Origin: an uncultured bacterium | GTDB lineage: Bacteria; Abyssobacteria; SURF-5 | Assembly (NCBI GenBank): GCA_964607485.1 | Contig: CAZSKP010000007.1 | Coordinates: 85,539 to 149,538, forward strand | Direction of reading: 5' to 3' | DNA length: 64,000 nucleotides | Part shown: positions 30,937 through 51,965 of the stretch, piece by piece | Layout: every line of letters starts with the position of its first letter | Numbering within the stretch: position 1 is the first letter of the stretch | Translations under genes and position numbers: made by a program | Notes under the pieces: generated by a model | The model's input: only the letters and a program-made list of their open reading frames with translations | Database searches by the model: none | Told to the model about the DNA's origin: nothing

Positions 30937-30961
30937 GGTTCTCACGACCATGCTCGCACAG

Positions 30962-31572: not shown

Positions 31573-31685
31573 ACCCCTGTATTTTTGGCGTTTTTCTGCA
31601 ACCGAGTGCAATTCTTCTGATTTTGCAACTTAAAAACTTGCAATTACTTGCGAAATGGTACGATTTGCTGCAGAAGATCCTGGAA

Positions 31686-31711
31686 TGCCTTACAAGCAGG
31701 AGGTCACTGGT
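31686..31711 (+). mobile_element. tRNA-Val fragment (anticodon arm to T stem), attR-like
   Basis: TGCCTTACAAGCAGGAGGTCACTGGT, 24/26 identical to the tRNA. Confidence 0.85.
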
Positions 31712-32131
31712 GTTGAGTTTCAGCGCATTTGGGAGAGATGGTCAGAAGGGAAGTGGAGGGCGGCGGCAAAAGAGTCCAGCCTGCGCAGGTTTCCCGGGGA
31801 CTGGGTCATCGAGTTTGTTGAGGGGGGAGAGGACTATCTCTTCGGCTATGACATGCGAGAATGCGGTATTCATAAGTTCTGGCGTTCCAAGGGGCTTGAA
31901 GAATTTGTTCCCTATCTGTGTCTTACCGATTGGGCGAAGTGGAAATCGATTGGAGTAGCTGTCGAAAGAAGTCAGACCATCGCCAATGGGCACGAAGTAT
32001 GCGATTTCAGGTACTGCAGAGCGAAGAAAGCATGCCCGTCAGGATGGCCTCCGGAATCAAACCCCGAGTGGACCGGCAAATTCGAGAGAACCAATGGGGA
32101 CAGAATCGACAAGAAAACGGGTCCAGAGTGA
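31712..32131 (+). pseudogene. C-terminal fragment of an L-2-amino-thiazoline-4-carboxylate hydrolase-like (V4R-like) protein
   Basis: YDMRECGIHKFW, YLCLTD, RSQTIANGHEVCDFRY; N-terminus replaced by tRNA/att sequence. Confidence 0.7.
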
Positions 32132-32137
32132 TTCGTT

Positions 32138-32238
32138 CAAGCCTTGATTTTTCGCGTTCCCCGAAAGTGTAACCTCCACCCATCCAATCGTTCAAATATC
32201 GCTTCTGGCGAGTAAAGATAATGTTTTCTATTCTTCAC
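32138..32238 (-). repeat. ~100-bp module-boundary repeat, copy H
   Basis: Reverse complement: GTGAAGAATAGAAAAC...GAAGCGATATTTGAACGATTGGATGGGTGGAGGTTACACTTTC...AAAAATCAAGG. Confidence 0.88.
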
Positions 32239-32432
32239 TGATTTTGGCTTTCCAAAGACCTGATTCTCCGTCTCTATGTCCTTCCCGGTCGAACAAGTGA
32301 AGAAGCGCAGGGTGGAGTGCGCTTAGGCGCCGCTTCCCGGGACGCGGCAGCCGTCGGAACATGTGCCGCATCACCGATTTCTTTCGGTCCATGTCCACAG
32401 GAACGATGCATGGATTAGAACCGGAACCGTGT

Positions 32433-33446
32433 TCATGGTTTATGGCCAGTGACACGCTGGAGGATGTTGTGAACGAACTCTACAGCCTCGACCCGGGCGA
32501 AGCCGGCATCCTCCATATAGCCACAGACCTCGGCGTTGCTGTGGGCTCGTCCCTTGCTGCCCAGTAATGCTTCGTGTATCGACCACGTTGCAGCTATCAG
32601 CGGGCCGGTCTTCTGTTCGTTCAGGTTCTCCGCGATAATGTGCATCACCCCATTGGAAGGCAGCACCTGGAATGCTTTTGCAATGATATTTCGCGCCTCG
32701 TCTGGCCCGTATTGGGTAAGATTGCCGTTCAGCATCACGACATCCACACCTTCGGGAAAGGGATCGCTTGTGAAGTCCCCCGGATGCGTCTCGATGCGGT
32801 CGGACAAGCCCGCCTCCTCGACCAGTTCGTCGGTTACTCGACACACGTCGGCAAAATCGAACACGATCGCACGCAGATTAGGAAACCGGCGGCACAGTGA
32901 TACGCAATATGCGCCCGAGCCACCTCCTAGGTCGAGCACGAGGTTGTAGCTTGAGAAATCAAACCGTTTGGCGAGCTTGCTTCCTGCGCCCAGCCCGACG
33001 TTGAACATGGCACGCGTTAGCATCTCGGCCTGGTCGGTCGTCATCTTCTCGTAGATGCCGAGGACCGACGGCGGACTTGGATCGGTGAGCCGGTCGGCAA
33101 GATTGATCCACTGGGCGAAATCTCCCTTGCCCATGAGTGACCAAGCACCGAAGTAGCGCGGTTTGCCTTCCACAAGATAAATTTCGACGTCCGGGGCGTT
33201 GACGTAACGGTTGTCTCGTTTCTCAAGCAGGCCGAGCGCCGCACACGCAATGACAAGTCGCTCGGCGTTCAGGGGCGAGAGCCCGCACGCTAAGGCAATC
33301 TCCTCAGGGGTTGTGGCACCTTCGGAAACCTTTGTAAAGAGGCTCAGCTCGATGGCCGCCATCAATATACCCGAGTGCTTGAATCCGAAGCCGATGTTCT
33401 GAATTCTCTCGGTCCCGAGGCGAGGGCTGTCAGGCGAAGATGTCAT
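32433..33446 (-). CDS. SAM-dependent O-methyltransferase (Methyltransf_2 with dimerisation domain)
   Basis: AAIELSLF, LDLGGGSG, HPGDF, GVDVVML. Confidence 0.88.
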   Translation of the reverse strand: MTSSPDSPRLGTERIQNIGFGFKHSGILMAAIELSLFTKVSEGATTPEEIALACGLSPLNAERLVIACAALGLLEKRDNRYVNAPDVEIYLVEGKPRYFGAWSLMGKGDFAQWINLADRLTDPSPPSVLGIYEKMTTDQAEMLTRAMFNVGLGAGSKLAKRFDFSSYNLVLDLGGGSGAYCVSLCRRFPNLRAIVFDFADVCRVTDELVEEAGLSDRIETHPGDFTSDPFPEGVDVVMLNGNLTQYGPDEARNIIAKAFQVLPSNGVMHIIAENLNEQKTGPLIAATWSIHEALLGSKGRAHSNAEVCGYMEDAGFARVEAVEFVHNILQRVTGHKP

Positions 33447-33675
33447 TGGCCAGTTCTCCTTTCAGCGGCCACAGATGTGGTCTTGTGTTCAATCACGATT
33501 CCGTTTCTCCGATTCTCTTAGAGGATTTCTTGACTGCTGATCCTTCCGTGCGACAAAAAATAATTCTCTGGGACTTTCGAAACCGTATGGACTTCTGTCA
33601 TAAGCCCTGAATTATTCCTCCGCTACCATTAACAGCCAAAACAGTATAACACTTCCTTCCCTGAGCATTACACTT

Positions 33676-33776
33676 GAAAGTCTCACTTTCCCGGCCGCCT
33701 GAAAGTGCGCCTTCCACCCATCCAACCGTTCAATTGTCACTCTCAAAGAGTCAACAATACGTTTTCCATTCTGCAC
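33676..33776 (-). repeat. ~100-bp module-boundary repeat, copy G
   Basis: Reverse complement: GTGCAGAATGGAAAACG...GAGAGTGACAATTGAACGGTTGGATGGGTGGAAGGCGCACTTTC...GAAAGTGAG. Confidence 0.9.
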
Positions 33777-33870
33777 CGATTCTTGTTTCCCAACTTCCGC
33801 TCATTTGCCTTTCCATCCAGGGAAATGTGACCTTGCGGAACGGGCCGGCGACTGGTACAGGACGAGAGTT

Positions 33871-34545
33871 TCAGGCGGTGTGTCTGCTGGAATACGTCAG
33901 ATAGCCGATAACCATGTTTGCGAGTTCCGTTATCAGTTCCTCTTCAGCGAACGGCGCGTTGGTCGTAATGCTGCTGTGAAGACAGGCTTCGACGGCCTCG
34001 TCTATCAGGAACGCAGCGAGCGGAATATTGCGCACCCTGATCTCGCCGCGTCGGTTCTCGATCAATCGTTTCAGCGGTTTGCGGAGCTGCGCCCGAATCT
34101 GATTTCGCACGTCCCGGAACTCGGGATCCTTCATGGCTATCTGAGCGAAGGCATGTTGCAGACCTGGATCACGCTTGTGACTCTGGAATGCCGTCCGGAC
34201 AAGCGAATGGATTCCGGCGTGGAAATCTATGCCCTGCCATTTCTGCGGATCCAGCTCCGCGTGGATTGTTTTCTCGATTTCCAGTGAATAATCATGGTAG
34301 ATTTCCAGGAATACGCTGCGCTTATCGAGGAAATACTTGTAGAACGTCCCCACGGATACACCGGCACGTTTCGCGATATGATTGGTCGTTGTTCTCTCGT
34401 ACCCCTTTTCGGAGAACAAGCGGGTTGCGGCTCGGACGAGTCGCTGGCGCGTGCGCCGGCTACGTTTCTGTTTTGGAACGTCTTTGGCTGACTGGGCAAT
34501 ATCCGTGTTCATGACAGCGGTGGTGCTCCTTTCATTACGGCTCAT
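33871..34545 (-). CDS. TetR/AcrR family transcriptional regulator
   Basis: LVRAATRLFSEKGYERTTTNHIAKRAGVSVGTFYKYFLDK. Confidence 0.92.
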   Translation of the reverse strand: MSRNERSTTAVMNTDIAQSAKDVPKQKRSRRTRQRLVRAATRLFSEKGYERTTTNHIAKRAGVSVGTFYKYFLDKRSVFLEIYHDYSLEIEKTIHAELDPQKWQGIDFHAGIHSLVRTAFQSHKRDPGLQHAFAQIAMKDPEFRDVRNQIRAQLRKPLKRLIENRRGEIRVRNIPLAAFLIDEAVEACLHSSITTNAPFAEEELITELANMVIGYLTYSSRHTA

Positions 34546-34620
34546 TCATCTTGCTATTCGACCCGACAAACAATCTGGATAAAATACCTATTTTCTTGTC
34601 CGACTTATAAAAGCCTAGCT

Positions 34621-34709
34621 ATTATAATATCAAGAGCTTATCTATGTCAATAAAAAAATAAACATGAAATCACATTTTTATTGACAAAGCCGGCTGTTTC
34701 GGCTATAAT
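34621..34709. promoter_or_regulatory. divergent sigma70 promoters with a 12-bp inverted repeat
   Basis: Plus: TTGACA-17-TATAAT (34681-34709); minus: TTGACA-18-TATAAT (34650-34621); TGTCAATAAAAA/TTTTTATTGACA. Confidence 0.75.
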
Positions 34710-34855
34710 ATGCTGAACATGGCCTCTTGGATTGTTCATGACCGGGAATTCTTCATCTGTGCCGGAATAAACCCAATGGACAAGCCGCGCACAAAAGAAG
34801 CATCCCCACCAACCGGTCTCAAAATAGCGGATGCAACGCGAATTGGGAGGGTACG

Positions 34856-35392
34856 ATGACCGACACTAATAGCGGCATCACGATGGATGACCTCATGGCA
34901 TTTGCCCGGCAAAGCGAGGAGATCGGCAGCGCGTACAAGGTGCCGGGCGAGCAGCATCTCATGCATCTCCTCGGCGCGATCGCCCGGCAGGGAGAATCCG
35001 AGTTCGGCGAGAAAGGGCTGGAGATGATCGGCCGAGCGGTCGACCGATTCGGTGAAGAACGGGGTCAATGCGTTGCCCACACAGTGAAAGAGAAGGGGAA
35101 GCCGCTGACACTGATGAATTTCTTCCTCTACAGCGATATGGATACCAGCGGCAACGAAATGGTGCCGAAGCATGTCGGCGGCGAACTGCACATCCGCGTT
35201 CACAAATGCATTTTTGCCGACCGGCTCAAGGATTTCGGGCTGGAACAATACGGGATACATTACTGCAAATACATCGACATCGCCACGTTGAGGGGATACA
35301 ACCCCAAGCTTCAGCTCGAAATAAAATCGCAGCTTACGGGCGGCGCCGACTGCTGCCATTTCATTTACCGGCAACCCGAAGGGGCGGCGTAG
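34856..35392 (+). CDS. L-2-amino-thiazoline-4-carboxylate hydrolase-like (V4R-like) protein
   Basis: FGEKG...RFGEERG, HKCIFA, YCKYIDIA, GYNP, LTGGADCCHF. Confidence 0.75.
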   Translation: MTDTNSGITMDDLMAFARQSEEIGSAYKVPGEQHLMHLLGAIARQGESEFGEKGLEMIGRAVDRFGEERGQCVAHTVKEKGKPLTLMNFFLYSDMDTSGNEMVPKHVGGELHIRVHKCIFADRLKDFGLEQYGIHYCKYIDIATLRGYNPKLQLEIKSQLTGGADCCHFIYRQPEGAA

Positions 35393-35453
35393 CCGGCTAT
35401 CGGAACACTGGACGCAGTGTTCATGAACGCACAATGATTTGGGGAGTGATCTC

Positions 35454-37229
35454 ATGTCGCAACAACGGATTGAAACCGATGTGCTGGTTGTCGGCGGCGG
35501 CGGCGCGGGCTTCAGGGCGGCCATAGGCGTCACGGAGACAGGCGCGAAAGCCACGCTTCTGAGCAAAGGGCCGCTAGCACGCTGCGGGGCCACGCCCATG
35601 GCGGGCGCCGACTTCACGCTTGATGGGCATAGCCTGAGTGAAATGGGATTCGACGGTGAGCCCAAGGATAGCATGGAGATATTCTTCAGCGATATCGTGC
35701 ACCAGGGGTATTTCCTGAATAATCAGAAACTCCTCGAGCAGTACGTCCGCTCCGCGCCCGCGCGGCTGAAGGAACTACTGGATTGGGGCATCGAAGTCAA
35801 AGGATCGGAAGAACGCGCCATCTTCACGAGCGGCACAGGAATCATGGACGCGCTGCTTCGCAAGGCCAGGGAAGTGGGCGTTGACATGATCGAGGATGTC
35901 ATGCTCGTTGATCTCGTCGTGCAGGATGGGAAAATCGCAGGCGCTCTGGCTCTTGACATCAAGACCGGCGACTTCATCAATATTCAGACCAACGCCGTCA
36001 TCATGGCGACAGGCGGTTGGCATAAGGCGTTCTGGCCGAACACGGGGATGCGCGACCTCTCAGGTGAGGGAATTGCCATCGCCCACCGCGCTGGTGCCGA
36101 CATTGGAAACATGGAGTTCATCACATTTTGCTGCAATGTGCTCCTGGATCCGCCAATATGGCGGGGAAGCATCGCGGTCTATATCCTCCACTCGGTCCTC
36201 GGCGGTCTTCTCACCAACGCAGCCGGCGAAACCTTTCTGGACAACTACGATCCCTACGTCGTGCAGAAGGGCACCACGATGGAGTGGAACAAGAGCTTCT
36301 TGTCCTTTGCAACCATGAAGGAAGTGCGGGAGGGCAAAGGCTTATCCCACGGAGGCATCCACTTCAGCCGGGGAGAAGTGCCGTGGGAACCGTTTGAAGC
36401 CATAGCTGGCTTCCTCTTCCCGAACTGGAAGTACAAAGGGCTGGATTTGACCGAACTCGGCCGCAAGATCAAAGATGGTGAAAGCGTTGAAGTCGGCTCC
36501 GCCGTTGAATACTTTGATGGTGGCATCGTTGTCGACGAGCGATTCGAAACAAGCGTTCCGGGTTTGTATGCGGCTGGCGAATGCACTCTCGGCCCTTTTG
36601 GCTCGAACCGCGTGGCTGCGGCCATCACCGAAATGCTTGTGCACGGGGCGGATGCCGGGCAAAACGCCGGCGAACATGCGAAAACGGTCGACATTCCCCC
36701 GCCGGATGAACACGCCTTGAGCGAAAAGCAAGAAAAGGCGATGCTTCCGCTGACGCGAAAAAGCGGTTCCAGGCCGGCGCCTGTGAGGAGACATGTTCAG
36801 GAAATGGCACACAAATACCTCGGCCCCATCCGCAACAGGCAGGAGCTTCAGACCTTCATCAATTTTTTGGAAAATGTCAAACGCGAAGAGTTACCGACCC
36901 TGGCGCCGTCCTCCAAGAGCCGGATTTACAACAAGGAATGGATCGACGCGCTGGAACTCGAGCATATGGTTCACCTGGTCGAGGCCTCAGCGAGGAGCGC
37001 GCTCGCGCGCACCGAGAGCCGGGGCGTTCATTACCGGGAAGATTTCTCATCTACGGATAATGACAACTGGCTCCATGAGAGCATAGTGAAATTGACTGAC
37101 GGCGGCATGGAAATTGCCATGCGTCCGGTCACACTCACAAAAATAGCGCCGCCTGCGGGCACGGTGCCGTACCTGGATATGATGAAGAGTATGATGGAAG
37201 CCCACTCTGAGGTCGGGGGCCATCATTGA
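35454..37229 (+). CDS. SdhA/FrdA/NadB-family FAD-dependent oxidoreductase
   Basis: DVLVVGGGGAG, MATGG, GADIGNMEF, GGIVVD, GLYAAGE, GSNR, RTESRGVHYREDF; no covalent-FAD His (RCGATPMAGA). Confidence 0.85.
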   Translation: MSQQRIETDVLVVGGGGAGFRAAIGVTETGAKATLLSKGPLARCGATPMAGADFTLDGHSLSEMGFDGEPKDSMEIFFSDIVHQGYFLNNQKLLEQYVRSAPARLKELLDWGIEVKGSEERAIFTSGTGIMDALLRKAREVGVDMIEDVMLVDLVVQDGKIAGALALDIKTGDFINIQTNAVIMATGGWHKAFWPNTGMRDLSGEGIAIAHRAGADIGNMEFITFCCNVLLDPPIWRGSIAVYILHSVLGGLLTNAAGETFLDNYDPYVVQKGTTMEWNKSFLSFATMKEVREGKGLSHGGIHFSRGEVPWEPFEAIAGFLFPNWKYKGLDLTELGRKIKDGESVEVGSAVEYFDGGIVVDERFETSVPGLYAAGECTLGPFGSNRVAAAITEMLVHGADAGQNAGEHAKTVDIPPPDEHALSEKQEKAMLPLTRKSGSRPAPVRRHVQEMAHKYLGPIRNRQELQTFINFLENVKREELPTLAPSSKSRIYNKEWIDALELEHMVHLVEASARSALARTESRGVHYREDFSSTDNDNWLHESIVKLTDGGMEIAMRPVTLTKIAPPAGTVPYLDMMKSMMEAHSEVGGHH

Positions 37230-37277
37230 GGTATATGCCTGTCGCGCGGCAGTGAGGATTTCGGAAAGGTATTCGCC

Positions 37278-37613
37278 ATGGCCGAAAGAAAGATAACCGT
37301 GAAAGTGTTCAGATTCGACCCATCCGTCGATGACAAACCGCATTATCAGAGCTACGAAGTACCGTTCAGTCAGGGAATGAGCGCCATGGACGCACTCGAC
37401 TACATTCATCAAGAGCTGGACGGTACGCTCGCCTACTATGATCATGCGGGATGCTCTCTCGGAATCTGTGCGCGATGCACGGGCAGGATCAACGGAAAAG
37501 CCGGACTGCTGTGTCAGACCCTGATTGAGGGAGATGTATGCCTGGAGCCTACCACAGCCGACAGGGTGATAAGAGATTTAGTGATAGCGAGAAAGAGTAA
37601 GGAAGCTCATTAA
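37278..37613 (+). CDS. 2Fe-2S protein (SdhB/FrdB N-terminal domain only)
   Basis: FRFDP, MDALDYI, GCSLGICARC...NG...LC, LEP...VIRDL. Confidence 0.85.
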   Translation: MAERKITVKVFRFDPSVDDKPHYQSYEVPFSQGMSAMDALDYIHQELDGTLAYYDHAGCSLGICARCTGRINGKAGLLCQTLIEGDVCLEPTTADRVIRDLVIARKSKEAH

Positions 37614-37653
37614 GATCCCGTCAATTTCCGAAGGAGCGCACAGGAGGAAATCC

Positions 37654-37995
37654 ATGAAAATCTGCAGTTTCAAAAATGTGGAGTTTAAGGAGGTAGCCGA
37701 ATAGGGCGCGAAGGGCGTGTCGGTTCGATGGGTTATCTCCGACGAGGACGGCGCGAAGAATTTTTTCATGAGGGTATTCGACGTCCAGCCGGGAGACCAC
37801 GCGCCGTACCACGAGCACTCATGGGAGCGTGAAGTGTTTATTCTCGAGGGACAGGCGGAGATAGCCACAGAAAGTGGAAAAAAGTGTGCTCCGGCGGGCA
37901 GCATCGTTTTCGTTCTGCCGGGAGAGAAGCACCAGTTCAGGAATGAGACCGATAAGATCATGCGGTTCATCTGCCTGATTCCAAAGGTCGATTAG
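37654..37995 (+). pseudogene. cupin-domain protein with in-frame TAG at 37702-37704
   Basis: AGGAGG RBS, MKICSFKNVEFKEVAE*GAKGVSVRWVISDEDGAKNFFMRVF...HEHSWEREV...HQFRN. Confidence 0.75.
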
Positions 37996-38089
37996 CGGCA
38001 ACAGTTCACAATTCTTCCAGACACCCTGATACATCTGAACGGAATGTGGCTCCAAATATTGAATTGCAGACCCATGTGAGGAGAAAAAG

Positions 38090-38791
38090 ATGCACAAGAA
38101 AATCGGTATTCTGGGCGGCTTGAGTCCGGAATCGACGGTAACCTATTACGAGTACATCACCCGCACGTATACTGAACGATATGGAGATTACGGCTATCCC
38201 GAAGTAGTGATCTACAGCGTATGCTTCCAGAACTATATCGACTGGGGCGAATCGGGTCGATGGGACAAGATTGCGCAGGACATGATAGCTGCAGCACGAG
38301 CGCTCGAGCGCGCAGGCGCCGACTTCGCAATCATCGCAACGAACACCATGCACATCGTATTCGATGAGGTCCAGACCGCGGTTCAGATCCCGTTCCTCCA
38401 TCTTATCGATGCGACCGCCGAGGCAATACAGGCGGAAGGCTTCTCAAACGTCGGGCTCCTGGGAACGAAATTCACGATGGGCGAACCATTCTACAGAGAC
38501 CGACTCGCCGCCAACGGAATCACTGCGATCCTACCCGATGAAGCCGGTTGTGAGGATGTGGATCGAACGATATACCAGGAACTGGTTCGGGGGCGCGTCG
38601 TCGAGTCCTCACGAAAGCGGTTCACAGAGATTATTGACGGGCTGCGACAAGACGGCGCCGAGGGCGTCATTCTCGGATGCACGGAAATACCCCTGCTTAT
38701 TTCCGACGATGATTCCTCACTGCCGTTGTTCAATACAACGACCATTCACGCCGAAAAAGCCCTCCAGTACGCCATCTCCGGAAATGCGTAG
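38090..38791 (+). CDS. aspartate/glutamate racemase family protein
   Basis: IGILGGLSPEST, IATNTMH, LLGTKFTM, ILGCTEIPL. Confidence 0.9.
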   Translation: MHKKIGILGGLSPESTVTYYEYITRTYTERYGDYGYPEVVIYSVCFQNYIDWGESGRWDKIAQDMIAAARALERAGADFAIIATNTMHIVFDEVQTAVQIPFLHLIDATAEAIQAEGFSNVGLLGTKFTMGEPFYRDRLAANGITAILPDEAGCEDVDRTIYQELVRGRVVESSRKRFTEIIDGLRQDGAEGVILGCTEIPLLISDDDSSLPLFNTTTIHAEKALQYAISGNA

Positions 38792-38810
38792 CGAAGGATA
38801 ACCGGGAAAA

Positions 38811-39186
38811 CTAATCTTCGCTTTCCGGACGATATATACGCGCGATCGGAAGAAGACTGACTGCTGGCCGGTATTCGGAGTAGTCTGGCTCTTTAGCCTT
38901 CCGTGCTTTCTCGAAGCGGGCGCGATCAAGGCGGCCGGCGATGTCGTCCACGATCGCGTATATGCTCGGAACGAGCAACAGGGTCAGGAGTGTTGCAAAG
39001 GACAGGCCCCAGACGATGACTACCGCCACAGGGGTGAGAAATGCGGTCAGCCCGAAAATGGTGGTGACGGACGTGAGAATCACGGGCCGCAGCCGCAAGC
39101 GTCCCGCTCGCAGAAGCGCTTCCCGGCGATCGAGACCTTCCTCGCTCTCTTATTGATGAAATCCATGAGAGTCAATGAATCGTTTT
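38811..39186 (-). pseudogene. C-terminal remnant of an RND (AcrB-family) permease
   Basis: NDSLTLMDFIN, frameshift, then GRLRLRPVILTSVTTIFGL...GLSFATLLTLLLVP. Confidence 0.75.
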
Positions 39187-39457
39187 CTAATCTGCACTTG
39201 GCAGCCTATCCTTTCTGGCCACTCGTCCCCTACTCTCCCCTCCTGGGCTTTTATTCTCTGACGGTACCTGTGCCGAATCTGCCGGACAGGTGTCTGAAGG
39301 ACGCCGGACTTGACGTTCCTGATTTACCATCAAAGATTTCATCAACTGTTTTGAGAAACTCCGGGCTCTATCAACCTCAACCAAGAACGCTCGGCTCCTT
39401 CTGTGCCAAACGTGCTGAACTCCAACAAGAAACATGGAGGGCTTTCCACGCAATGGT

Positions 39458-40696: not shown

Positions 40697-40709
40697 CCCC
40701 GATAAAACC

Positions 40710-41951: not shown

Positions 41952-42643
41952 GTCGCGAGCATCCTCGTATCGGAGACGACCCTGCCGTCCCGAAGAGCGA
42001 CCACGCGTTCGGCCTGTTGGGCGATCGATTCTTCGTGCGTGACGATGACCAGGGTATTTCCTTTCTGATGCAGTTCTTTGAATAACGAGACGACTTCGGC
42101 CTCGGATGAACTGTCGAGGTTACCGGTCGGTTCATCGGCCAGGATCAGCGATGGGCGGTTCACAAGAGCGCGCGCGATCGCCACTCGCTGCACCTGTCCG
42201 CCCGAGAGCGCGTTCGGCCGGTGATGCATGCGGTCGGCGAGTCCGACGGCTTCGAGCACCTCTTTCGCGCGGCGCGACCGTTCGCGCGCGGGGACCCCTC
42301 CGTAGATGAGAGGCAATTCCACGTTCTGAAGAGCCGTCAGGCGGGGAAGAAGGTTGAAGGTCTGAAAGACGAATCCGATCTTTCTATTCCTGAGTTCGGC
42401 AAGGGCGTCGTCGCTTGAGCCGGTAATATCTGTTTTGTAAAAGCGGTATGTGCCTGAGGTCGGCCGCGAAAGACAGCCCATGATGTCCATCAAAGTGGTC
42501 TTGCCGGAACCGGAGGGGCCGATAATGGAAACGAACTCGCCTTGGTCGATGTCGAGAGAGACTCCTCGCAATGCGTGCACCTGAATCTCAGAGGAATCAT
42601 ACACTTTGGTTATGCTGCTGAGAGAGAGGAAACCTTTGTCCAA
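41948..42643 (-). CDS. ABC transporter ATP-binding protein (MacB/LolD-like)
   Basis: [30 protein letters not shown]. Confidence 0.93.
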
Positions 42644-42664
42644 TGCGGCTCCGTCCCATCCGTG

Positions 42665-43813: not shown

Positions 43814-44045
43814 ACCCGGCCTCTCTTCTCATACTGCGGAGAGTGTTCCTATATGAGTGGACTGTGCGACAAGACTCTCAAGAATCCTATCATATGCCGT
43901 TTGGCTCTGCAAGTAGCAACCATGCGCAAACCTAGGGCGGGAAGGGTTGATACGCTTCGAGGCCGACCTTTAATTTCCCGCCTTAAAAGACTCCCTATGT
44001 CCAAGATTAGGGGAGACCTGCCCCCGGTAACGCTACCGACCTGGA

Positions 44046-44258
44046 ATGGTCAAATTTGTGTTTACCATAGCAATGTTTCTGTTGATTGTGGGAGTGCTGC
44101 TGATTCTAATACTTCTGGAAACCATGACAATATGGATCGCTGAGAATAATCGTCGAAAGTTAGACCTTGACCAGCGCCTGGAAGTGATGGCAAGATTTTG
44201 GGCATATACTCCAAGGCAACTCTTGCGCAAACCCCAATGTGATGATATATTTTCTTAG
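44046..44258 (+). CDS. small hypothetical membrane protein
   Basis: 70-aa ORF with one N-terminal hydrophobic helix. Confidence 0.35.
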   Translation: MVKFVFTIAMFLLIVGVLLILILLETMTIWIAENNRRKLDLDQRLEVMARFWAYTPRQLLRKPQCDDIFS

Positions 44259-44563
44259 ATATTGTAGATGACAAGGGTTTCTGCAAAGGAGAAACAAATT
44301 CTTTTTGTGCCCATCTTGGGCTATTCCAACTCTTGCTTTCCATCCTTTTTTACACCCCCACCGCCACCCTTAGCTGCTTAGTTCAAACACAAGAAGGCTA
44401 TTGATGATGTTGGCAGGATTAACGGCCAAACGGCTCCGCCGGGGGTACTTTCCCCAGCCAAAAGCAGGTATCGTTTATCCCGCTTTCTGAAGTCGTTGCG
44501 TCGGCAAACACGAACATTGTCCTGGAAGTCGAAGGGCGGCGTTCTACAAAAGGAGGTTCAATC

Positions 44564-45574
44564 ATGACTGAAAGACCAAGCTTTGAGGGCATTATCCAAA
44601 TAGCCTTTGGCTTCTGGGCGTCAAAGGCTTTATTGAGCGCTGTCGAGATCGGGCTCTTCACTGAGCTCGCCGATGGTCCGTTGGATGCCGACAGGCTTAT
44701 TTCTCGCCTGGGAATCCAAAATCGTGGCGCCCGAGATCTATTTGATGCGCTTGTTGGACTAGGCATGCTCAATCGCGATGATGGCCAATATTCGAATGCA
44801 GCAGCAACCGGTTTCTTTCTTGATCGGTCTAAGCCCACCTATATAGGGGGTTTGCTCGAGATGGCCAATTCCAGGCTATATCCGTTCTGGGGATCGCTGA
44901 CAGAAGCCCTACGCACCGGTCAACCACAAAATGAGGCCAAAGTGGGGGGACAATGGTTCAACGATTTCTATAATGACCCAGCTCGGACGCGTGTTTTTCT
45001 CCAGGGGATGACAGGCCTAAGCATACCCTCGGCAGACGCCATCGCGGCCAAATTCCCCTGGTCCGATTACCAGACGTTCGTCGATGTCGGAACGGCACAA
45101 GGGGCATTACCGGTTCAAGTTGCCCTGGCTCACGAGCACTTGACGGGCGCAGGATTCGACCTTCCATCCGTTGGTCCTATATTTGATGAGTACGTGAATT
45201 CATTTGGACTCGCTCATAGGCTTCGATTCCTTCCGGGAGATTTCTTCAAAGACCCACTTCCACAAGCAGACGTTCTCGTGATGGGACATATTCTTCATGA
45301 CTGGAACTTGGAGGAAAAGCTCATGTTGCTAAGAAAAGCGTACGAAGCTATTGCTCCCGGAGGCGCCTTAATAGTCTACGATAACATTCTTGATGACGAT
45401 AGAAGAATCAACGTGTTGGGATTGCTGGAAAGCCTGGATATGCTGATAGAAACCCCTGGTGGTTTTGAATACACGAGAAAAGAGTGCTGCTCCTGGATGC
45501 GCGAGGTCGGATTCCGCGAAACCCGAGTCGAATCCCTTGACGGACCCGATTCGATGGCCGTTGGGATCAAGTAG
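44564..45574 (+). CDS. SAM-dependent O-methyltransferase (Methyltransf_2)
   Basis: [49 protein letters not shown]. Confidence 0.9.
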
Positions 45575-45795
45575 TCCAAAAGCCATGGCATAGAAAGTTA
45601 TGCGACCCGTCATACGGATAGGACTTGACGTACAACATGAGGCAAAGCCAGCGCCAGAGAATTCTATGAGCAGTGCAGGCGTTGGATAGAGAACAATGCA
45701 ATTATTGCCTTGGTCGGTTGATTCATATATCTCCCACGGTCCAATACCTCTTAAGCAACATAGGCGAACGGCATAGATTCCTCAGAACAACAGTC

Positions 45796-45896
45796 GAAAC
45801 CTTCACCTCCCGGGCTTTCTCAGAGTGCACATTTCACCCATCCAACCGTTCAAATGTCGCTCTGAGAGAGTGCATAATGCGTTTTCCATTCTTCAC
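45796..45896 (-). repeat. ~100-bp module-boundary repeat, copy F
   Basis: Reverse complement: GTGAAGAATGGAAAACGCATTATGCACTCTCTCAGAGCGACATTTGAACGGTTGGATGGGTG...GTGAAGGTTTC. Confidence 0.9.
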
Positions 45897-46105
45897 TTAT
45901 TTTCGCTGCTCCAAGCCATGATTCTCAGTCTTAAGGAATCAAGAATGGCAACCTTCTTTTTCACCAAACCTTGACCACCGATTTTCATGGTTGCCATGCA
46001 AAAATCGCTGCTCTCTGGTATGCTACTATGGTTCTTGGACTAGTATCGACACAGGTCGCCTTGGTGCGGGCAGGTCATCTCTTAATGCAAGCCCAATGAA
46101 GAATC

Positions 46106-47227
46106 ATGCATTGTGATTATCTTGTTATAGGAGCAGGGTTATTCGGATCTGTGGTGGCAGAACGGATAGCCAACGACTTGGGTGCGAACGTCGTACTCAT
46201 CGACAAGCGCTCTCATATTGGAGGAAACTGCTATTCTGAACTGGATCAGGAAACGGGTATCGAAATTCACAGATATGGTACGCACATTTTCCATACTGCA
46301 TCAGCAAGGGCCTGGGAATACGCCAATCGATTCACGGGGTTCAGCAACTATCATCATCAGGTCTTGACGACCCATCGCCAAAGAGTCTATCAAATGCCGA
46401 TTAACTTGGCGACGATCAATTCCTTTTATGGGATGAACCTGAAGTCTCATGAGGCGAGGGAATTCTTGCAGAGAGAGATTGAAAAGGAGGATATCAGAGA
46501 ACCCAAGAATCTGGAAGAGAAGGCGATCTCCTTAATGGGAAGGTCTCTTTATGAGGCCTTCATGAGAAACTATACGATAAAGCAGTGGGGCAAGGATCCC
46601 AGAGAGTTGCCACCGACGATCATAACTCGATTGCCGATACGATTTGACTGTAGGAGGGACTACTTCATTGATTCAAGGTGGCAGGGCATACCTCTGGACG
46701 GATACACGAAGATGTTTGAAAGAATGCTTGACTCGCCCAAAATTCACATAGAACTTGACTGTGACTATTTTGAAAATAGGGACGCTTTCAGAGTTGCGAA
46801 GAAGACCGTCTACACAGGACCTATAGACCGCTATTTCGGTTATGTCTATGGCGAACTGGAATGGAGGACGGTCAACTTAGAAGAAGAAGTCGTTGACGTT
46901 GAGGACTACCAGGGAACCTCTGTGATGAATTATGCGGATATGGATGTGAAATACACGCGTATCCACGAATTCAGACACCTGCACCCCGAGAGGCCTTATT
47001 GCAAAGCCACAACCATAATATCTCGAGAAACCTCTGGGCAAGGCGGAGATAATCCATATTATCCCATCAAGACCTTGAGAAACAATTCCCTCCTAGCAAA
47101 ATACCAGAAGCTCCAACAAGGAGAAGCCGGAATAATCATTGGCGGTCGTCTTGGAGACTACGATTATCTTGACATGGACAAGACAATCCTGGCTGCTCTT
47201 GATACGTATGAGCGTGACATTGTCTGA
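46106..47227 (+). CDS. glf: UDP-galactopyranose mutase
   Basis: IGAGLFG, HIGGNCY, YGTHIFHT, YTIKQWG, QGIP, YTRIHEF, PYYP, GRLGDYDYLDMD. Confidence 0.93.
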   Translation: MHCDYLVIGAGLFGSVVAERIANDLGANVVLIDKRSHIGGNCYSELDQETGIEIHRYGTHIFHTASARAWEYANRFTGFSNYHHQVLTTHRQRVYQMPINLATINSFYGMNLKSHEAREFLQREIEKEDIREPKNLEEKAISLMGRSLYEAFMRNYTIKQWGKDPRELPPTIITRLPIRFDCRRDYFIDSRWQGIPLDGYTKMFERMLDSPKIHIELDCDYFENRDAFRVAKKTVYTGPIDRYFGYVYGELEWRTVNLEEEVVDVEDYQGTSVMNYADMDVKYTRIHEFRHLHPERPYCKATTIISRETSGQGGDNPYYPIKTLRNNSLLAKYQKLQQGEAGIIIGGRLGDYDYLDMDKTILAALDTYERDIV

Positions 47228-47401
47228 GAGAAAGCTATCTTTGCCTCCAATCTGCTTCAATATTTCTGTATAGGGGTCCGCAGGGAGTCCCGGGAGTTTC
47301 CCTTAGGGGTTTGCTGGGATTCCTGATCGCGCTACTTGTGCGAGGATTCGGAGCGCTGTGAGAGACAGGATGTGCCGTAGTCGGGAGGGAGTACTCAGGA
47401 C

Positions 47402-48334
47402 GTGGGTGTCGACATCAGCATAGCGGTTTGCACGCGCAATCGCCGGAACCTGCTCGTTCAAGCTCTCGATAGTATTGATAAGTTGAAAGTTCCCGATGGT
47501 CTGAGCTACGAGGTGCTGGTAATCGATAACGGATCGACTGACGGCACGTGGGAAGTCGTCCAACGCTTTGTCGAGAAGGCCCACGATATATACGCGTACC
47601 ACTCCGAGCCGCGCAAGGGTCTATCCATCGCGTGCAATTGCGCAGTGGAGCGCGCGCGAGGTGAGATCATCGCGTTTGTCGACGACGATGTGGTCGTCGA
47701 CGAGCAGTGGCTGCAGGCGCTCCGCGACGTATTTGTGGCCCGGCCCGACATTGCCGCCGTCCAGGGAAAGATTTTGCTCCAGGAAGGGACGGATCCCGTG
47801 CCGCCGTGGCTGGCCGAGGAAGTAATCGCCATACAACCGCTCTATGATCGCGGGCCGACCCGGCAGTACGCTTCGGCGCTCGTGGGTGCAAACATGGCGG
47901 TTCGAAAGCGGATATTTGAGAAGTACAACTTGTTCAATATCCACTTGGGCGGGGGAGCCTCGGGTACATACCAAGATACGGAATTGGGCAGGCGGCTCGT
48001 GCAACACGGCGAGAAGATACTCTACGAACCTGCGGCCGTCGTTATTCACGCATACTTGCCCGAACGGATGACGCAAGAGTATGTGTGGAATAGGTGGCGG
48101 CAGATCGCACGCAGCAAGGCATACGTCGATGTCGTGCTGAACGGAAAGAAGCCCAGCGCCATCCGAAATCGGCTGAGACTGTTTCGCTATTCTGCGCGGA
48201 GGTCCTGGGGCCGGCTTACGCGCAACGAGCGCACGCGCCACCGGTACGACCGAAAGATCTACTATCAGAAAAACTACATGGCGGAAGTGACAAGACTGAG
48301 TAAGACACCGCCAATCGGGCTCGACGATCAATGA
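47402..48334 (+). CDS. glycosyltransferase family 2
   Basis: SIAVCTRNR, VIDNGSTD, AFVDDD, GANMA, QDTEL. Confidence 0.9.
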   Translation: MGVDISIAVCTRNRRNLLVQALDSIDKLKVPDGLSYEVLVIDNGSTDGTWEVVQRFVEKAHDIYAYHSEPRKGLSIACNCAVERARGEIIAFVDDDVVVDEQWLQALRDVFVARPDIAAVQGKILLQEGTDPVPPWLAEEVIAIQPLYDRGPTRQYASALVGANMAVRKRIFEKYNLFNIHLGGGASGTYQDTELGRRLVQHGEKILYEPAAVVIHAYLPERMTQEYVWNRWRQIARSKAYVDVVLNGKKPSAIRNRLRLFRYSARRSWGRLTRNERTRHRYDRKIYYQKNYMAEVTRLSKTPPIGLDDQ

Positions 48335-48401
48335 GATCGACAACCACAAAGGCTGCGGCCCACGCAAATTATTGGCGAGCAGACCACCCAGAAGAATGTC
48401 C

Positions 48402-48501
48402 GAAATCTTACTTTTCCCGTCGCCCGAAAGTACAACTTCCACCCATTCGACCGTTCAAACGTCGCTCTCAGAGAGTCAACATTCCGTTTTCGATTCTGCA
48501 C
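48402..48501 (-). repeat. ~100-bp module-boundary repeat, copy E
   Basis: Reverse complement: GTGCAGAATCGAAAACG...GAGAGCGACGTTTGAACGGTCGAATGGGTGGAAGTTGTACTTTC...GAAAAGTAAGATTTC. Confidence 0.9.
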
Positions 48502-48731
48502 TCCCGCCTTTTCAGGTCCTCCCGATGGTACGTCCGAGTCAATTTTTGACTCATCTCATGGCAAAGCTCCCTTTCTTGAAATCGAGTAGTTCGAAGGCTA
48601 TAATCGTGTCTGGGATTTCATTGAGCGGATCTTCCTTGTGCCCGCTGCGATAAGGGGTGCAGTCCGTACGAAAACTTCATGCCGCCACGATGGGTTCAGT
48701 TCACCACTCACGAATCGCAATGGGAGGACAT

Positions 48732-48971
48732 ATGGGTAAGCGCATGATACACATCTCCACCGATAATTGTACCGGCTGCCTGAGGTGTCAATTGGCCTGC
48801 TCGAAGTTACACACCGAGGCCTTCAACCCCATCAATGCGTATATCCAGGTAAAGTTGTCGGGTGTGGATTGTTCGATTTGTTTTACGGAAGAGTGCGACG
48901 AATGTGGGACATGCGTAGATAACTGCTTTTACGGCGCATTGCGAGAAGCGCCAGAGGAGAGCGGGAAATGA
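48732..48971 (+). CDS. small 4Fe-4S ferredoxin-like subunit
   Basis: CTGCLRCQLAC and CDECGTCVDNCFYGAL; GGAGG RBS; ATGA overlap with AOR. Confidence 0.85.
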   Translation: MGKRMIHISTDNCTGCLRCQLACSKLHTEAFNPINAYIQVKLSGVDCSICFTEECDECGTCVDNCFYGALREAPEESGK

Positions 48972-50833
48972 AAACGGGAGGTTTTGCCGGAAAAGTTCTT
49001 TATGTTGATTTAACGAAGAGAGAGATCAGGCGCGACCCGTTGGATCTTGACCTGGCGGAAAAATTTATCGGGGGTCTGGGACTCGGCATAAAATTGTTCT
49101 TCGACAAGGGCAGGCCGGGAGCCGATGCCTTGTCTCCGGAGAATCCAATCGTTCTGGGGGCAGGTCCTCTTGTCGGAACGGGGCTTCCTTCCACCTCCAG
49201 GGTTTATTCTGTCTCGAAGATGCCCACAAGCGGCACTATTGGCTGGTGCGGTGCGGGTGGGGTCAACTTCGGTTGTATGCTCAAGAACGCAGGATACGAC
49301 CATGTGGTGATCGAGGGACGGGCGGATCGGCCGGTCTATTTGAAAATCATCGACAGCGATGTGGAGATTTGTGATGCCGGGCCATTATGGGGAAAAAGCG
49401 TGGAGGAGACCTGTGAGGCGCTTTGGGAGTGCTTTGGCGAGCAGGCGGGCACGCTCTCCATCGGCCAGGCAGGCGAAAACCGAGTCTCCTTCTCCATGAC
49501 TTATATCGACCGAATCGCAACCATGGGACGGGGCGGATTCGGCGCCGTAATGGGATCCAAGAACCTCAAGGCGGTCGTCGCCAAGGGCAGTCACGGGATT
49601 ACGGTTTCAGATGGGAAGAGGTACAACGTTTTAAGCGAAGCTCTCCTGGAAAAAATCCGCCAGTATCCTTACCTGAAAGAATGGCAGGAACTCGGGCTGG
49701 TCAAATCCTTTCCACTTATTCCTAAAGAGACATATGACAGTATCAAGAAAAGACGCGTGGCCTGCGTATCCTGCCCCATCGGCTGCAAAGATATGGTCGA
49801 GATCCCGGACGGGGACCACAAGGGATTCGTCGCATGTTCGAGCTCTGTCGTGAACCTGTTCACGCCTGTATTATATGGTTTCAACGATTATCGCGAAGCG
49901 ATCAAACTAATCGCAACCCTCGACGATTACGGACTGGACATGTTCGAATTCTTCGGGGTGATGAGCTTAGCCAGGGTTCTGGGTGATCACGGGGTCATCT
50001 CACAGGACCGCATCGAAACGCCCATCCTTCTCGATTCTCTTCATTCCATGGAGACTTGGGCGAAAATGATAGCTTTCCGGGAGGAACTTGGTGAGATTCT
50101 AGCTCGCGGATTCAAAGGGATAATAAAGGAATTCGGCGAAGAAGCGAAAAAATGCGCGCCAACCCTCGTAAAAGGAATGCATCCTTATGCCGGGCCGGGG
50201 TCCGCCCTTTCCTGGAACCTCTTCGGAACCATGGAACTCGGACAGGTGCTCGATCCCCGGGGACCCCATGTGGGGTCCGGTGGCTCGCCAACATATTTTG
50301 CCAAGAGACCACTCGAGGTTTTCCCCCGTCATTTAACTAGAATGGGGGTCCCGCAGGAGGCCATCGAACGGATACTCCCCGGGTCGGGCTTGGCTGCCGA
50401 AGAACAGGGAATCGAGGTTGGGAAGCTCTTGAAGTATTCCCATGTCTGGTTCAGTATCCTGGGATCACTGGGCATCTGCGCCAGGGCGCAGATCAACCGA
50501 TTCTACAGTGCATCGTTATGCGCTGAACTCTACGAGGCAGTGACCGGCATTGCAACCGATCTGTCGGGGCTCAGGCAGCGGGCAGAACGGGTCTGGACTC
50601 TGTACAGGATAGCCAATCTCAGGGAGGGCTTCAACAGGAGCGATCACGAGAGCCTCCCCGACCAGTGGTTCGGAACGGAGGGCTTTAAGGATTATGTCAC
50701 AGAGCAACCCCTTGAGCGCCAAGAAGCCGAACGAATGATTGAAGATTATTATGGGGAATGGGGATGGGACAGAAAAACAGGAATCCCGACCGCACAAGTG
50801 CTCGATGCGCTCGGCTTGACAAACAACATCTAG
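48968..50833 (+). CDS. aldehyde:ferredoxin oxidoreductase family protein (W/Mo)
   Basis: YVDLT, GAGPLVG, GRGGFGAVMGSKNLKAV, CVSCPIGC, DDYGLD, GWDRKTGIPT. Confidence 0.87.
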   Translation: MKTGGFAGKVLYVDLTKREIRRDPLDLDLAEKFIGGLGLGIKLFFDKGRPGADALSPENPIVLGAGPLVGTGLPSTSRVYSVSKMPTSGTIGWCGAGGVNFGCMLKNAGYDHVVIEGRADRPVYLKIIDSDVEICDAGPLWGKSVEETCEALWECFGEQAGTLSIGQAGENRVSFSMTYIDRIATMGRGGFGAVMGSKNLKAVVAKGSHGITVSDGKRYNVLSEALLEKIRQYPYLKEWQELGLVKSFPLIPKETYDSIKKRRVACVSCPIGCKDMVEIPDGDHKGFVACSSSVVNLFTPVLYGFNDYREAIKLIATLDDYGLDMFEFFGVMSLARVLGDHGVISQDRIETPILLDSLHSMETWAKMIAFREELGEILARGFKGIIKEFGEEAKKCAPTLVKGMHPYAGPGSALSWNLFGTMELGQVLDPRGPHVGSGGSPTYFAKRPLEVFPRHLTRMGVPQEAIERILPGSGLAAEEQGIEVGKLLKYSHVWFSILGSLGICARAQINRFYSASLCAELYEAVTGIATDLSGLRQRAERVWTLYRIANLREGFNRSDHESLPDQWFGTEGFKDYVTEQPLERQEAERMIEDYYGEWGWDRKTGIPTAQVLDALGLTNNI

Positions 50834-50903
50834 AGGGCTTCATTGAGTATTGAAGTCCGGCACATTTTGCACAGATTCCCGGAAGATAAGTGCGATCTTT
50901 GTT

Positions 50904-50983
50904 GAGAGTTGTACTATTTTCAAGCCCCTGAAAGTGAAGGCATCGTCCATCCGATAGTGAAGAATCCGTTTTCAAATCTACAC
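50904..50983 (-). repeat. internally deleted module-boundary repeat, copy I
   Basis: Reverse complement: GTGTAGATTTGAAAACGGATTCTTCAC|TATCGGATGG...CACTTTC...AAATAGTAC; the AGAGCGAT-TTGAACG block is missing. Confidence 0.75.
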
Positions 50984-50998
50984 AGGTCCACTAGCTGA

Positions 50999-51400
50999 CT
51001 AAAACCCCAGTTCGATGTCTAGCACCCGCTGCAGACGTTTGTGGAATTTGCTTTTCGGCTGTCTATCCTTCAGTTCCCAATTGACCACTGTCATTTCATC
51101 CGCTCCCACCAATTCCGCAAGCTCCCTTATCATCAGCCCTCTGTCAATCCTTGCTTTTCTGATCGCCTCTCCAAGGCTGTTTGCATTCTCTGGATATTCA
51201 GGGTAGAATGCCTTTGGTGAAAGAGCAAATTGAATGGCATAGACACCGTTTTCGATACCGGTTGTTTTTAGGATATGTCCCACGGGTGACCGTTCATCAG
51301 GGTTTTTGGCCTGAAACTCTACGACCTGTGGCGCAGAGATTTCCATGATCTCTCGATCAATCTGTTTCCAGAGAGGACTCTGCATCGAAAAAACAGCCAT
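50999..51400 (-). CDS. XRE-family HTH domain protein
   Basis: YPENANSLGEAIRKARIDRGLMIRELAELVGADEMTVVNWE. Confidence 0.75.
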   Translation of the reverse strand: MAVFSMQSPLWKQIDREIMEISAPQVVEFQAKNPDERSPVGHILKTTGIENGVYAIQFALSPKAFYPEYPENANSLGEAIRKARIDRGLMIRELAELVGADEMTVVNWELKDRQPKSKFHKRLQRVLDIELGF

Positions 51401-51427
51401 GGCATTTTCAGGCGAAAAAGGAATATG

Positions 51428-51652
51428 CTAACTGGGTTTGATAGAAGACACGAATTGGTCGATTACCATCGTCAATGCAGTGCGCACCTCGGGAGATAGA
51501 CTCGCCCAAGCGTGCATAAGTCTCTTTATAGGGTGCCCGGCAGGTTCTTTAGCATATTTGGTGCAGAGAGCAATGTCTTGTTCCGTAGCACCTGTATTTT
51601 CAATGCCTTCTGGCTCTTCTTGTATTGGTTCGAGCCCAGTACCGCCCACCAT
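51428..51652 (-). CDS. short ORF starting antisense within the tRNA fragment
   Basis: MVGGTGLEP is the reverse complement of the tRNA 3' end; helical C-terminal part (RLMHAWASLSPEVRTAL). Confidence 0.35.
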   Translation of the reverse strand: MVGGTGLEPIQEEPEGIENTGATEQDIALCTKYAKEPAGHPIKRLMHAWASLSPEVRTALTMVIDQFVSSIKPS

Positions 51653-51658
51653 GTAACT
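51626..51658 (+). mobile_element. tRNA-Val 3' fragment (T arm, acceptor, CCA plus 7 nt flank), att-like
   Basis: TGGTTCGAGCCCAGTACCGCCCACCATGTAACT, 31/33 identical to 21578-21610. Confidence 0.88.
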
Positions 51659-51718
51659 GCTTGAAGCTCCTTATGTTATAAGCACCCTTGAATGCCCCCC
51701 GGATTTTTCTCTTCAAAC

Positions 51719-51740
51719 TGTGGCCCAAACTGTCTCACAA
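51719..51740 (+). repeat. arm-type repeat, copy 3
   Basis: TGTGGCCCAAACTGTCTCACAA followed by TCCACATTAT, as in copy 1. Confidence 0.65.
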
Positions 51741-51965
51741 AATTCCACATTATGTTGTATTAGTTTCCGCATGATCTTTATATATAAAGTAGAGCATCTG
51801 CCTATTTAGCAAGAAGCCGCACCGCCTCCGAAAGGTTTTCTTTAAATCCTGTCTGCTGTTTGGATGGGAGGATTCTCACGTAGAAAGCTTTGGTGAATAG
51901 CAGGACGGATATTCTTGACCGAGGGAACAACAACTAGTCTCATGAGATTCTTGGAACGTTGACCA

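Follow-up and report, generated by a model that had tools for sequence, protein, structure and literature searches.

A 64,000-nt stretch of DNA from an uncultured bacterium of the SURF-5 lineage (the window, by which we mean this whole stretch) carries a family of ~100-nt repeats, here called the element, which repeat finding recovered on both strands. Along the window the strand of the element changes twice, each time around a piece of a split tRNA-Val gene. Why should a repeat turn over at the remains of a tRNA? The window corresponds to contig C7:85539-149538 (window coordinate = C7 minus 85538) of an assembly of 93 contigs and 4.70 Mb, and the contig ends where the window ends, at 64000. 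The strand flips are, in our view, highly probably the product of nested, separately acquired segments: an island sits inside the attachment site of another island, and each has its own co-oriented set of elements.

Strand switches and the tRNA-Val islands

We located the element with a sequence-only covariance model built from 28 copies (R1; reporting threshold E <= 0.001) and with an nhmmer profile built from eight copies and iterated over the genome. Copies are 110-190 nt long and intergenic only. R1 returned 11 of them in the window, and their arrangement, two on the plus strand before 31.7 kb, five on the minus strand between 31.7 and 51.6 kb and four on the plus strand thereafter, is the same as that given by the initial annotation (five minus copies within 31712-51625 and six plus copies outside, two before and four after). 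That annotation had further placed the flips exactly at the split-tRNA junctions. The switches do lie in the gaps that hold the junctions, but they are resolved only to the width of those gaps: on the right a 1-kb gap (50983-51965), on the left an 8.5-kb gap (23677-32133), or 5.2 kb if a weak partial copy is counted. Given two switches, the chance that both fall in the two junction gaps is 1 in 45. Taken alone, the window is marginal as to uniform strand (two or fewer switches in 10 neighbouring pairs, p = 0.055, binomial).

The junctions themselves tell more. Each of the two displaced tRNA-Val pieces is identical at 24 of 26 positions to the intact gene at 21527-21603; joined, they make up tRNA nt 30-77, and TGGT stands at both junctions. 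An arm-type repeat, TGTGGCCCAAACTGTGGC, is found 70 nt past the tRNA, 115 nt ahead of the first fragment and 70 nt past the second. The same arm motif follows the left attachment site (attL) of a tRNA-Pro(ggg) island on contig C14, where the repeat occurs on both sides of a 3.7-kb island and the relative of window 31547-31678 (89% identity over 132 nt) is followed at once by 45 nt of the tRNA-Pro 3' end, copied without a break. Because this twin is intact, the two pieces in the window are identified, by sequence, as the core of one right attachment site (attR) of a tRNA-Val island, opened by the 19.9 kb that we call segment 2. The displaced 3' fragment lies in direct repeat with the regenerated gene, with intact counterparts on C14, C20, C24 and C55. 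The G+C content of the three window segments (0.50-0.55) compares with 0.59 upstream of the tRNA and 0.574 in the genome.

At the right junction, window 51409-51649 matches C42:33297-33537 (85.5% identity over 241 nt, the tRNA 3' half included), and C42 turns to tRNA sequence at the same TGGT, its 24 nt being the 3' half of the tRNA-Val(cac) on C32. There is also a weaker, protein-level match to this end region beside a tRNA-Pro fragment (nt 45-76) on C3. The right end of segment 2 is, on this similarity, a real attR of a second island family with a predicted T-arm crossover. At the left junction one would expect the T-arm identity block a second time, but it is absent, and here an ATC-hydrolase-like frame is truncated: its Pfam match covers only profile positions 70-145 of 145, its residue 33 aligns with residue 126 of a 245-aa homologue from another genus (83% identity), and the gene is short by ~113-125 N-terminal residues. 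Since the left end cuts a gene, that side was probably deleted.

The history that we propose would run as follows. The tRNA-Val gene would carry tandem integrative islands, the first of which (21.6-31.7 kb) would end in an attR made of a P arm and tRNA nt 30-77, while the sequence from 51.6 kb onward would start with another P' arm. A third island, belonging to the T-arm-crossover family, would have integrated into the displaced pseudo-tRNA exactly at TGGT, where its attR stays intact. Its attL side, as far as the middle of the ATC-hydrolase-like gene, would later have been deleted, presumably together with the integrase gene; that the integrase itself made this deletion at a secondary site is speculation. 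If each piece brought its own array, and the inserted one lies reversed, strand switches in the two junction gaps would result. The suggestion that segment 2 is a similar array inserted in the opposite direction thus holds up well, as the segment appears separately acquired, splits an attR core that is intact on C14, and has a right junction homologous to C42 and C3.

Could 31.7-51.6 kb instead have been inverted in one simple step later on, or have been wrongly assembled? In favour of this, the assembly comes from a metagenome and is in 93 contigs, and the window stops at a contig end. Against it, a segment turned back leaves the tRNA halves still separated, no inverted tRNA pieces lie inside the segment ends, and the right junction recurs as an att junction on C42. 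From four runs of a single study we also aligned Logan contigs to 31672-51665, that is, segment 2 with a 40-nt flank on each side (eight runs contain parts of the region, none of them recorded as RNA). In X1, a 19.9-kb contig covers 31672-51479 and continues past the left end, and a 6.1-kb contig covers 51539-51665 and continues past the right end; in X3, from another sample, a 263-nt contig covers 31672-31918 with zero differences. X1 may be the source sample, so that its support is only partly independent, and for the right junction no second-sample contig is among the matches listed. With both junctions bridged by independent contigs, an inversion or misassembly is very improbable. The X1 Logan assembly breaks into short pieces at 51450-51568, where depth is 11-32x vs ~10x, and a 31-nt stretch at 42491-42521 is also present in a 249x contig of another organism.

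Crossovers of tRNA-borne islands fall at anticodon-stem or T-arm sublocations. Tandem or nested islands at tRNA genes are a known kind, in the field of the Islander database (PMC4383910) and of a study of integrative elements in ocean ecosystems (10.1101/2020.12.28.424599). The window shares with them a regenerated tRNA, displaced fragments, arm repeats and several islands per tRNA; it differs in having no integrase in the window, one island inside the displaced fragment of another, and cargo partitioned by an oriented element. No tyrosine integrase (PF00589) match was found on C7, and the window islands are remnants or satellites; beside the tRNA, the islands on C24 and C3 still have an integrase or part of one.

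The tRNA-borne island load of this genome is unusually heavy. Displaced fragments, several in tandem, derive from tRNA-Pro(cgg) on C3, tRNA-Phe and tRNA-Thr on C20, tRNA-Arg on C24, tRNA-Met on C55 (two in tandem), tRNA-SeC on C19 and tRNA-Leu on C44. On C14, two tandem islands with intact 43-45-nt att repeats occupy tRNA-Pro(ggg) (C14:43902-52864; locus L189 = 43500-48500). The first of these, the 3.7-kb island, encodes a ParB-like/DNA-methyltransferase fusion, a spore-photoproduct-lyase-like radical SAM protein and a 141-aa open reading frame (ORF), and contains no integrase and no element copy. In genome G005, of another genus of the same family, the orthologous tRNA-Val again comes after this ABC-transporter gene, and contig C55 (L212) ends with the final base of that tRNA, which would fit repeated att copies there too.

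Table 1. Element copies and attachment-site features of the window
Feature	Position	Strand	Basis
Intact tRNA-Val(tac), attL of first island	21527-21603	+	ARAGORN; Rfam tRNA 73.9 bits
Arm-type repeat, P' side, ~70 nt past tRNA	21652-21693	+	direct-repeat families D10, D11
Element copy, first of flank A, core end towards attL ~300 nt off	21906-22015	+	R1 E 7e-26
Element copy, diverged	23570-23677	+	R1 E 5.8e-7; nhmmer
Weak partial copy, model positions 1-47 only	26840-26892	+	nhmmer E 9e-4; no R1 match at E <= 0.001
P-arm region of first island, arm repeat at 31551-31571	31547-31685	+	89% identity over 132 nt to C14:47520-47651
5' part of predicted attR core, tRNA-Val nt 30-55, ends TGGT	31686-31711	+	direct repeat D13
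Segment 2, 19.9-kb putative inserted island remnant, G+C 0.537	31712-51625		splits attR core
ATC-hydrolase-like gene, 5' end cut by left junction	31712-32131	+	Pfam, homologue alignment
Element copy	32133-32239	-	R1 E 1.8e-22
Element copy	33668-33777	-	R1 E 4.1e-23
Element copy, long form, 3' tail to ~45720	45787-45897	-	R1 E 2.3e-24; tail from alignment
Element copy	48393-48502	-	R1 E 7.4e-24
Element copy with internal deletion, last in segment 2, core end towards right junction	50898-50983	-	R1 E 2e-7; alignment
P-side end region of second island family, 74-aa frame into tRNA piece	51409-51625		similarity to C42, C3
3' part of predicted attR core, tRNA-Val nt 52-77, starts TGGT	51626-51650	+	direct repeat D6
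Second P'-side arm repeat, start of flank C	51699-51740	+	D10, D11
Element copy, first of flank C, ~316 nt from core	51965-52075	+	R1 E 4.3e-24
Element copy	57733-57844	+	R1 E 4.3e-27
Element copy, diverged	60350-60455	+	R1 E 4.7e-7
Element copy near contig end	63607-63716	+	R1 E 5.9e-22

Polarity across the genome and the family

Beyond the window, the iterated nhmmer profile found 47 copies in the whole genome, clustered on few contigs, and R1 agrees. Read along each contig, the copies are 11 minus then one plus on C4, five minus on C20, four plus then one minus on C31, three plus on C9, and one minus and one plus on C50, alongside the plus, minus and plus blocks of the window on C7. Neighbouring copies are on the same strand in 28 of 33 pairs (five switches, p = 3e-5, binomial). 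When R1 was run on 60 other genomes, the element was present in all nine genomes of the same family, which represent seven other genera, and in none of the 51 outside it. From these nine, 50 fetched loci hold 64 copies by nhmmer; every multi-copy contig among them is uniform in strand, so that 20 of 20 neighbouring pairs agree (0 switches, p = 1e-6, binomial), giving 48 of 53 for the pooled set. Copies within one array are not independent, which makes the neighbour-pair p-values too favourable; even so the pattern is plain, and uniform polarity is general.

The segments whose ends could be mapped are all uniform: window 21.6-31.7 kb (3/3 plus, one of them weak), window 31.7-51.6 kb (5/5 minus), window 51.6-64.0 kb (4/4 plus) and a tRNA-Thr island on C20 (36.1-54.7 kb, 3/3 minus). 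Mixed orientations were found within no delimited island, which agrees with the proposal that polarity is fixed by the island to which a copy belongs, through a mechanism that we infer. On C20 the minus orientation runs on past attR, so a boundary need not flip polarity. Four arrays have an end copy immediately inside an att arm, its core pointing at the att core; the distance is ~300 nt in flanks A and C (before and after segment 2), 260 nt on C20 and, counted from the P-side region, 34 nt on C31.

Among the matches listed in a pattern scan of genome contigs (at least 118 loci), one is a true copy (L095, in a metagenome-assembled genome labelled 'Pseudomonadota bacterium') and the others are chance matches; a scan of viral contigs gave one match, which R1 did not confirm. 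The densest array, on contig C3 of family genome G006 (L139 12955-17401), packs seven matches, including a 27-nt core fragment, into 9 kb and begins directly beside two Ku genes and a split LigD (end-joining machinery).

Does the orientation simply follow the genes? Gene calls here are greedy ORFs (at least 90 aa for neighbour strand), made with no gene finder. The gene on the 3' side of a copy is convergent with it for 32 of 46 copies in this genome and 40 of 60 elsewhere (pooled 72/106, ~68%), and the gene on the 5' side reads away from it in 64 of 106. The initial annotation had the polarity independent of the strand of neighbouring genes, which is right in that uniform polarity persists where genes run the other way, but too strong in view of this convergent excess. 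Orientation linked to replication was softly rejected, as the sign of GC skew, itself weak, fits the strand of the element on C7 and C4 but not on C9 and C20.

Anatomy and cargo of the element

From 87 near-full copies and alignments, the 5' end of the element is a loxP/dif-like core of two imperfect inverted arms of ~10 bp, AGTGCAGAAT / ATTCTTCACT, around a 7-9-bp centre with the conserved asymmetric spacer GAAAACG. The spacer is exactly this in 53 of the 87 copies and is better kept than the arms, which are palindromic at 6.1 of 10 positions vs 2.2 for shuffled arms. As it is asymmetric, the spacer alone reveals the strand of a copy such as that at 50898-50983. Past the core lies an accessory part of 80-160 bp with two further copies of the core's own 13-bp half-site, GARAGTGMAGNTT (9 matches to the half-site pattern in the window vs 1.4 expected), and other conserved blocks, followed in some copies by a further tail of ~60 nt. 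Among 19 partial copies listed, some stop soon after the core (model positions 1-27, 1-31, 1-36) and others start just past it (model positions 18-35 onward). Sequence conservation across genera is about that of coding DNA.

This anatomy suggests a double-stranded DNA site bound by protein, rather than an RNA. Rfam gave no family at gathering thresholds for the whole window and none at E <= 10 for 45650-48650; RNAalifold found no consensus pairs on either strand of 28 copies; single-copy folds have z-scores of -0.2 to -1.8; and the arms of one copy pair no better with each other than with arms of other copies (72 copies; p = 0.29 and 0.65). With no Rfam match, no consensus structure and no compensatory pairing, we ruled out a structured RNA family. 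A small conserved ORF within the element was also dropped, since stop codons, read by eye, vary between copies.

The same data bear on whether the arrays could be integrons, or clusters of attC sites lacking an integrase, with the element a structured RNA or a single-strand hairpin of the attC type. An attC site is an imperfect hairpin with paired R''/R' and L''/L' boxes, kept in structure over sequence. Here co-oriented repeats of roughly the right length do separate diverse genes, and one copy holds an 11-bp perfect hairpin, but the folds are weak, the arms do not covary, no integron integrase was found, and the sites are 1-12 kb apart with operons in both directions. We think such an origin hardly probable. 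Compared with integron arrays and clusters of attC sites lacking integron-integrases (CALINs; see PMC4889954), the arrays are alike in their directly repeated co-oriented sites, diverse cargo, lineage-specific repeat and, for some arrays, the absence of an adjacent recombinase. They are unlike these in showing neither attC hairpin nor covariation nor IntI, with conservation in sequence rather than structure, and in having modules of 1-12 kb that comprise whole operons with regulators on both strands.

The cargo between copies is ordinary accessory metabolism and transport, with no mobility gene among the genes between copies. It is also diverse: among 368 ORFs within 1.2 kb of elements in ten genomes, the largest cluster has three members, which ruled out segmental duplication as the origin of the arrays. 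Copies are spaced 1-12 kb apart, with operons in both directions between them. A few modules recur across genera. A 379-aa gene is shared by this genome (G000) and G005 at 82% identity; the similarity starts where one element ends and stops only a few bases short of the following one, and the DNA beyond the flanking elements is unrelated. In three genera an element is followed, in a common layout, by a 149-aa gene. Core DNA is 74-80% identical between these genera. Two GT2 genes beside elements have gene and element in common, but not the intervening spacer.

Other small repeats occur in the window. Stretches of ~30-37 nt at 14688-14725 and 18123-18155 recur at 83-100% identity on many contigs of G005 and G006 and look like a separate small interspersed repeat family. 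A 29-nt inverted repeat (10215-10243 / 13088-13116, 97% complementary), has a low-G+C patch (0.42, bin 13001-15000) immediately past its right arm and may be a small insertion. Two tandem 20-nt repeats (27011-27052, 90% identical, D20) lie just upstream of a radical-SAM/B12 gene cluster.

A proposed recombination site and its rivals

What, then, sets the polarity within an island? Our second layer of explanation, a tentative one that we put somewhat short of an even chance, is that directional arrays of modules in direct repeat are built by way of the element, which would act as a polar site for recombination or as a polar boundary. A recombinase acting in trans would insert circular modules, each of one element and 1-12 kb of cargo, at resident elements, and would excise them. 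Unrelated cargo, with genes on either strand, would thereby come to lie between directly repeated elements, and the asymmetry of GAAAACG would give the site its polarity; the recombination, the enzyme and the direction of array growth are what we infer. Favouring this are the core-plus-accessory anatomy, the asymmetric spacer, the polarity of the arrays, the unrelated cargo and the truncations at the core, as well as the restriction to the family in the genomes searched, the modules conserved between elements across genera and the end copies that face an att core. Taken together, nested islands and a polar recombination site make our best explanation, to which we assign an evenly balanced probability.

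Known recombination sites offer partial parallels. Sites such as cer, psi and the res sites of the Tn3 family have a crossover core at one end and 100-200 bp of one-sided accessory sequence, are polar and favour direct repeats; they occur once per replicon, where they resolve multimers or cointegrates. The element likewise has its core at one end and accessory sequence on one side, but it occurs in dozens per chromosome, bounding cargo, and no resolvase gene was found in the genome. The core of an Xer site consists of two 11-bp arms around a 6-8-bp centre and resembles the host dif. The element departs from this, having ~10-bp arms, a 7-9-bp centre and no resemblance to a candidate dif of this genome, while Xer-like genes are indeed encoded by the host. 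Around a pdif module the sites alternate in orientation. The dif modules of Acinetobacter plasmids (PMC6449649, PMC13141974, PMC7399989) are similar in placing accessory modules between short sites that host XerC/XerD recombine in trans, with no integrase in the module. They differ in that pdif is 28 bp long and like the chromosomal dif, whereas the element is ~110-190 bp, directly repeated and unlike the candidate dif.

That candidate, a looser dif-like site at C21:71064, was picked with a dif consensus motif; nothing in the genome matched a 28-nt dif consensus within 8 substitutions. Two Xer-like genes, judged by score and length only, are on C18 and C22 of G000, and the same Pfam family has a strong match in nine of the 10 family genomes, with two matches in eight.

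Several observations weigh against the explanation that we prefer. The nesting must call on an extra deletion, with its left end 4 nt inside the identity block, to account for the absent attL half. As to a recombinase, none of the eight tyrosine-recombinase matches of the genome is on an array contig (C4, C7, C9, C20, C31), and none of the 24 recombinase matches in the nine other genomes is on an element-bearing contig, as judged by contig names. No serine recombinase was found in this genome, which is 97.5% complete, and no recombinase scored high enough to pass the NCBIfam cut-offs for integron integrases. Most family genomes have in common only recombinases that look like XerC/XerD, and the element core is unlike the candidate dif on C21. 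Four Logan runs, three of them low in depth, gave no joints. Cross-genus cargo (82%) is only slightly closer than core DNA (74-80%), so these modules may be old and vertically inherited rather than recently moved; the cargo is better conserved than the elements that flank it at matching positions; and metagenome relatives of a methyltransferase gene that here lies between two elements (77-85% protein identity) have an element nearby in none of five loci. Finally, orientation is partly tied to genes through the convergent 3' neighbours, for which a p-value is too optimistic given that copies within an array are non-independent.

This last tie would suit a reading in which the element acts on transcription, as a promoter or operator or as a polar roadblock, its strand following the main transcription of the segment. 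Repeated half-sites would suit a dimeric regulator, the 5'-side genes tend to read away, and in reverse orientation two of eight scanned copies have a sigma-70-like match (TTCAAA/TTTAAA, 18 nt, CATAAT). Nevertheless, polarity stays uniform even though at least a third of the neighbouring genes do not obey the rule: six of the 11 minus copies on C4 have a co-directional 3'-side gene, and most genes of the G006 C3 array run with the element and not against it. No other part of the core is as poorly conserved as the supposed -10, only ~40% of copies retain the second T of the supposed -35, no terminator-like site coincides with a copy, and the cargo has no common function. A role in transcription seems unlikely to us. 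The stoperators of cluster A mycobacteriophages illustrate what such a system can look like: 13-bp, asymmetric, intergenic protein-binding sites in one orientation per genome arm, strictly following transcription. The element, too, consists of many asymmetric intergenic sites of uniform orientation per region; its unit, however, is ten times longer, and about one-third of the neighbouring genes run the other way.

Quite improbable, though short of negligible, is a non-autonomous repeat resembling a miniature inverted-repeat transposable element (MITE), which would insert in intergenic flexible DNA with a preferred orientation. Many copies, a confinement to intergenic DNA, clustering at low G+C, varied truncations and lineage specificity all suit a MITE, but no transposase is linked to the element, GC skew does not account for its orientation (two large arrays accord with the skew of their contig, two do not), and the case shared by two genera has the cargo between elements in common, not the element. 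Nor were terminal inverted repeats spanning the 110-190-nt unit, or obvious target duplications, seen in the alignments, which were read by eye, with no formal scan and with fuzzy ends.

To return to the polar recombination site, its most specific form would be a cassette system, neither integron nor dif module, in a family of uncultured sediment bacteria: a double-stranded site of ~110-190 bp with a loxP-like core and accessory binding sites on one side, a recombinase encoded elsewhere, and operon-sized metabolic modules stacked one way in tRNA-borne islands and other flexible regions. It would amount to an 'operon integron' with neither hairpin sites nor a linked integrase. In this complete form we regard it as doubtful. 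The literature yielded related systems and no description of the element; as the element has no name, this absence is weak evidence that it is undescribed.

For this organism, then, the flip itself is explained by ordinary biology, an island nested in the attachment site of another, and it is useful mainly as a worked example of how the history of islands can be read from tRNA fragments. Were the element to act in a polar way on regulation, or as a roadblock, it would match on a chromosome what the stoperators are in phages. If instead it is a recombination site, it would show that simple double-stranded sites and entire operons suffice to build directional cassette arrays, independently of the integron mechanism, in a lineage that only metagenomes have revealed, and the element would then serve as a sequence handle for the flexible gene pool of that lineage.

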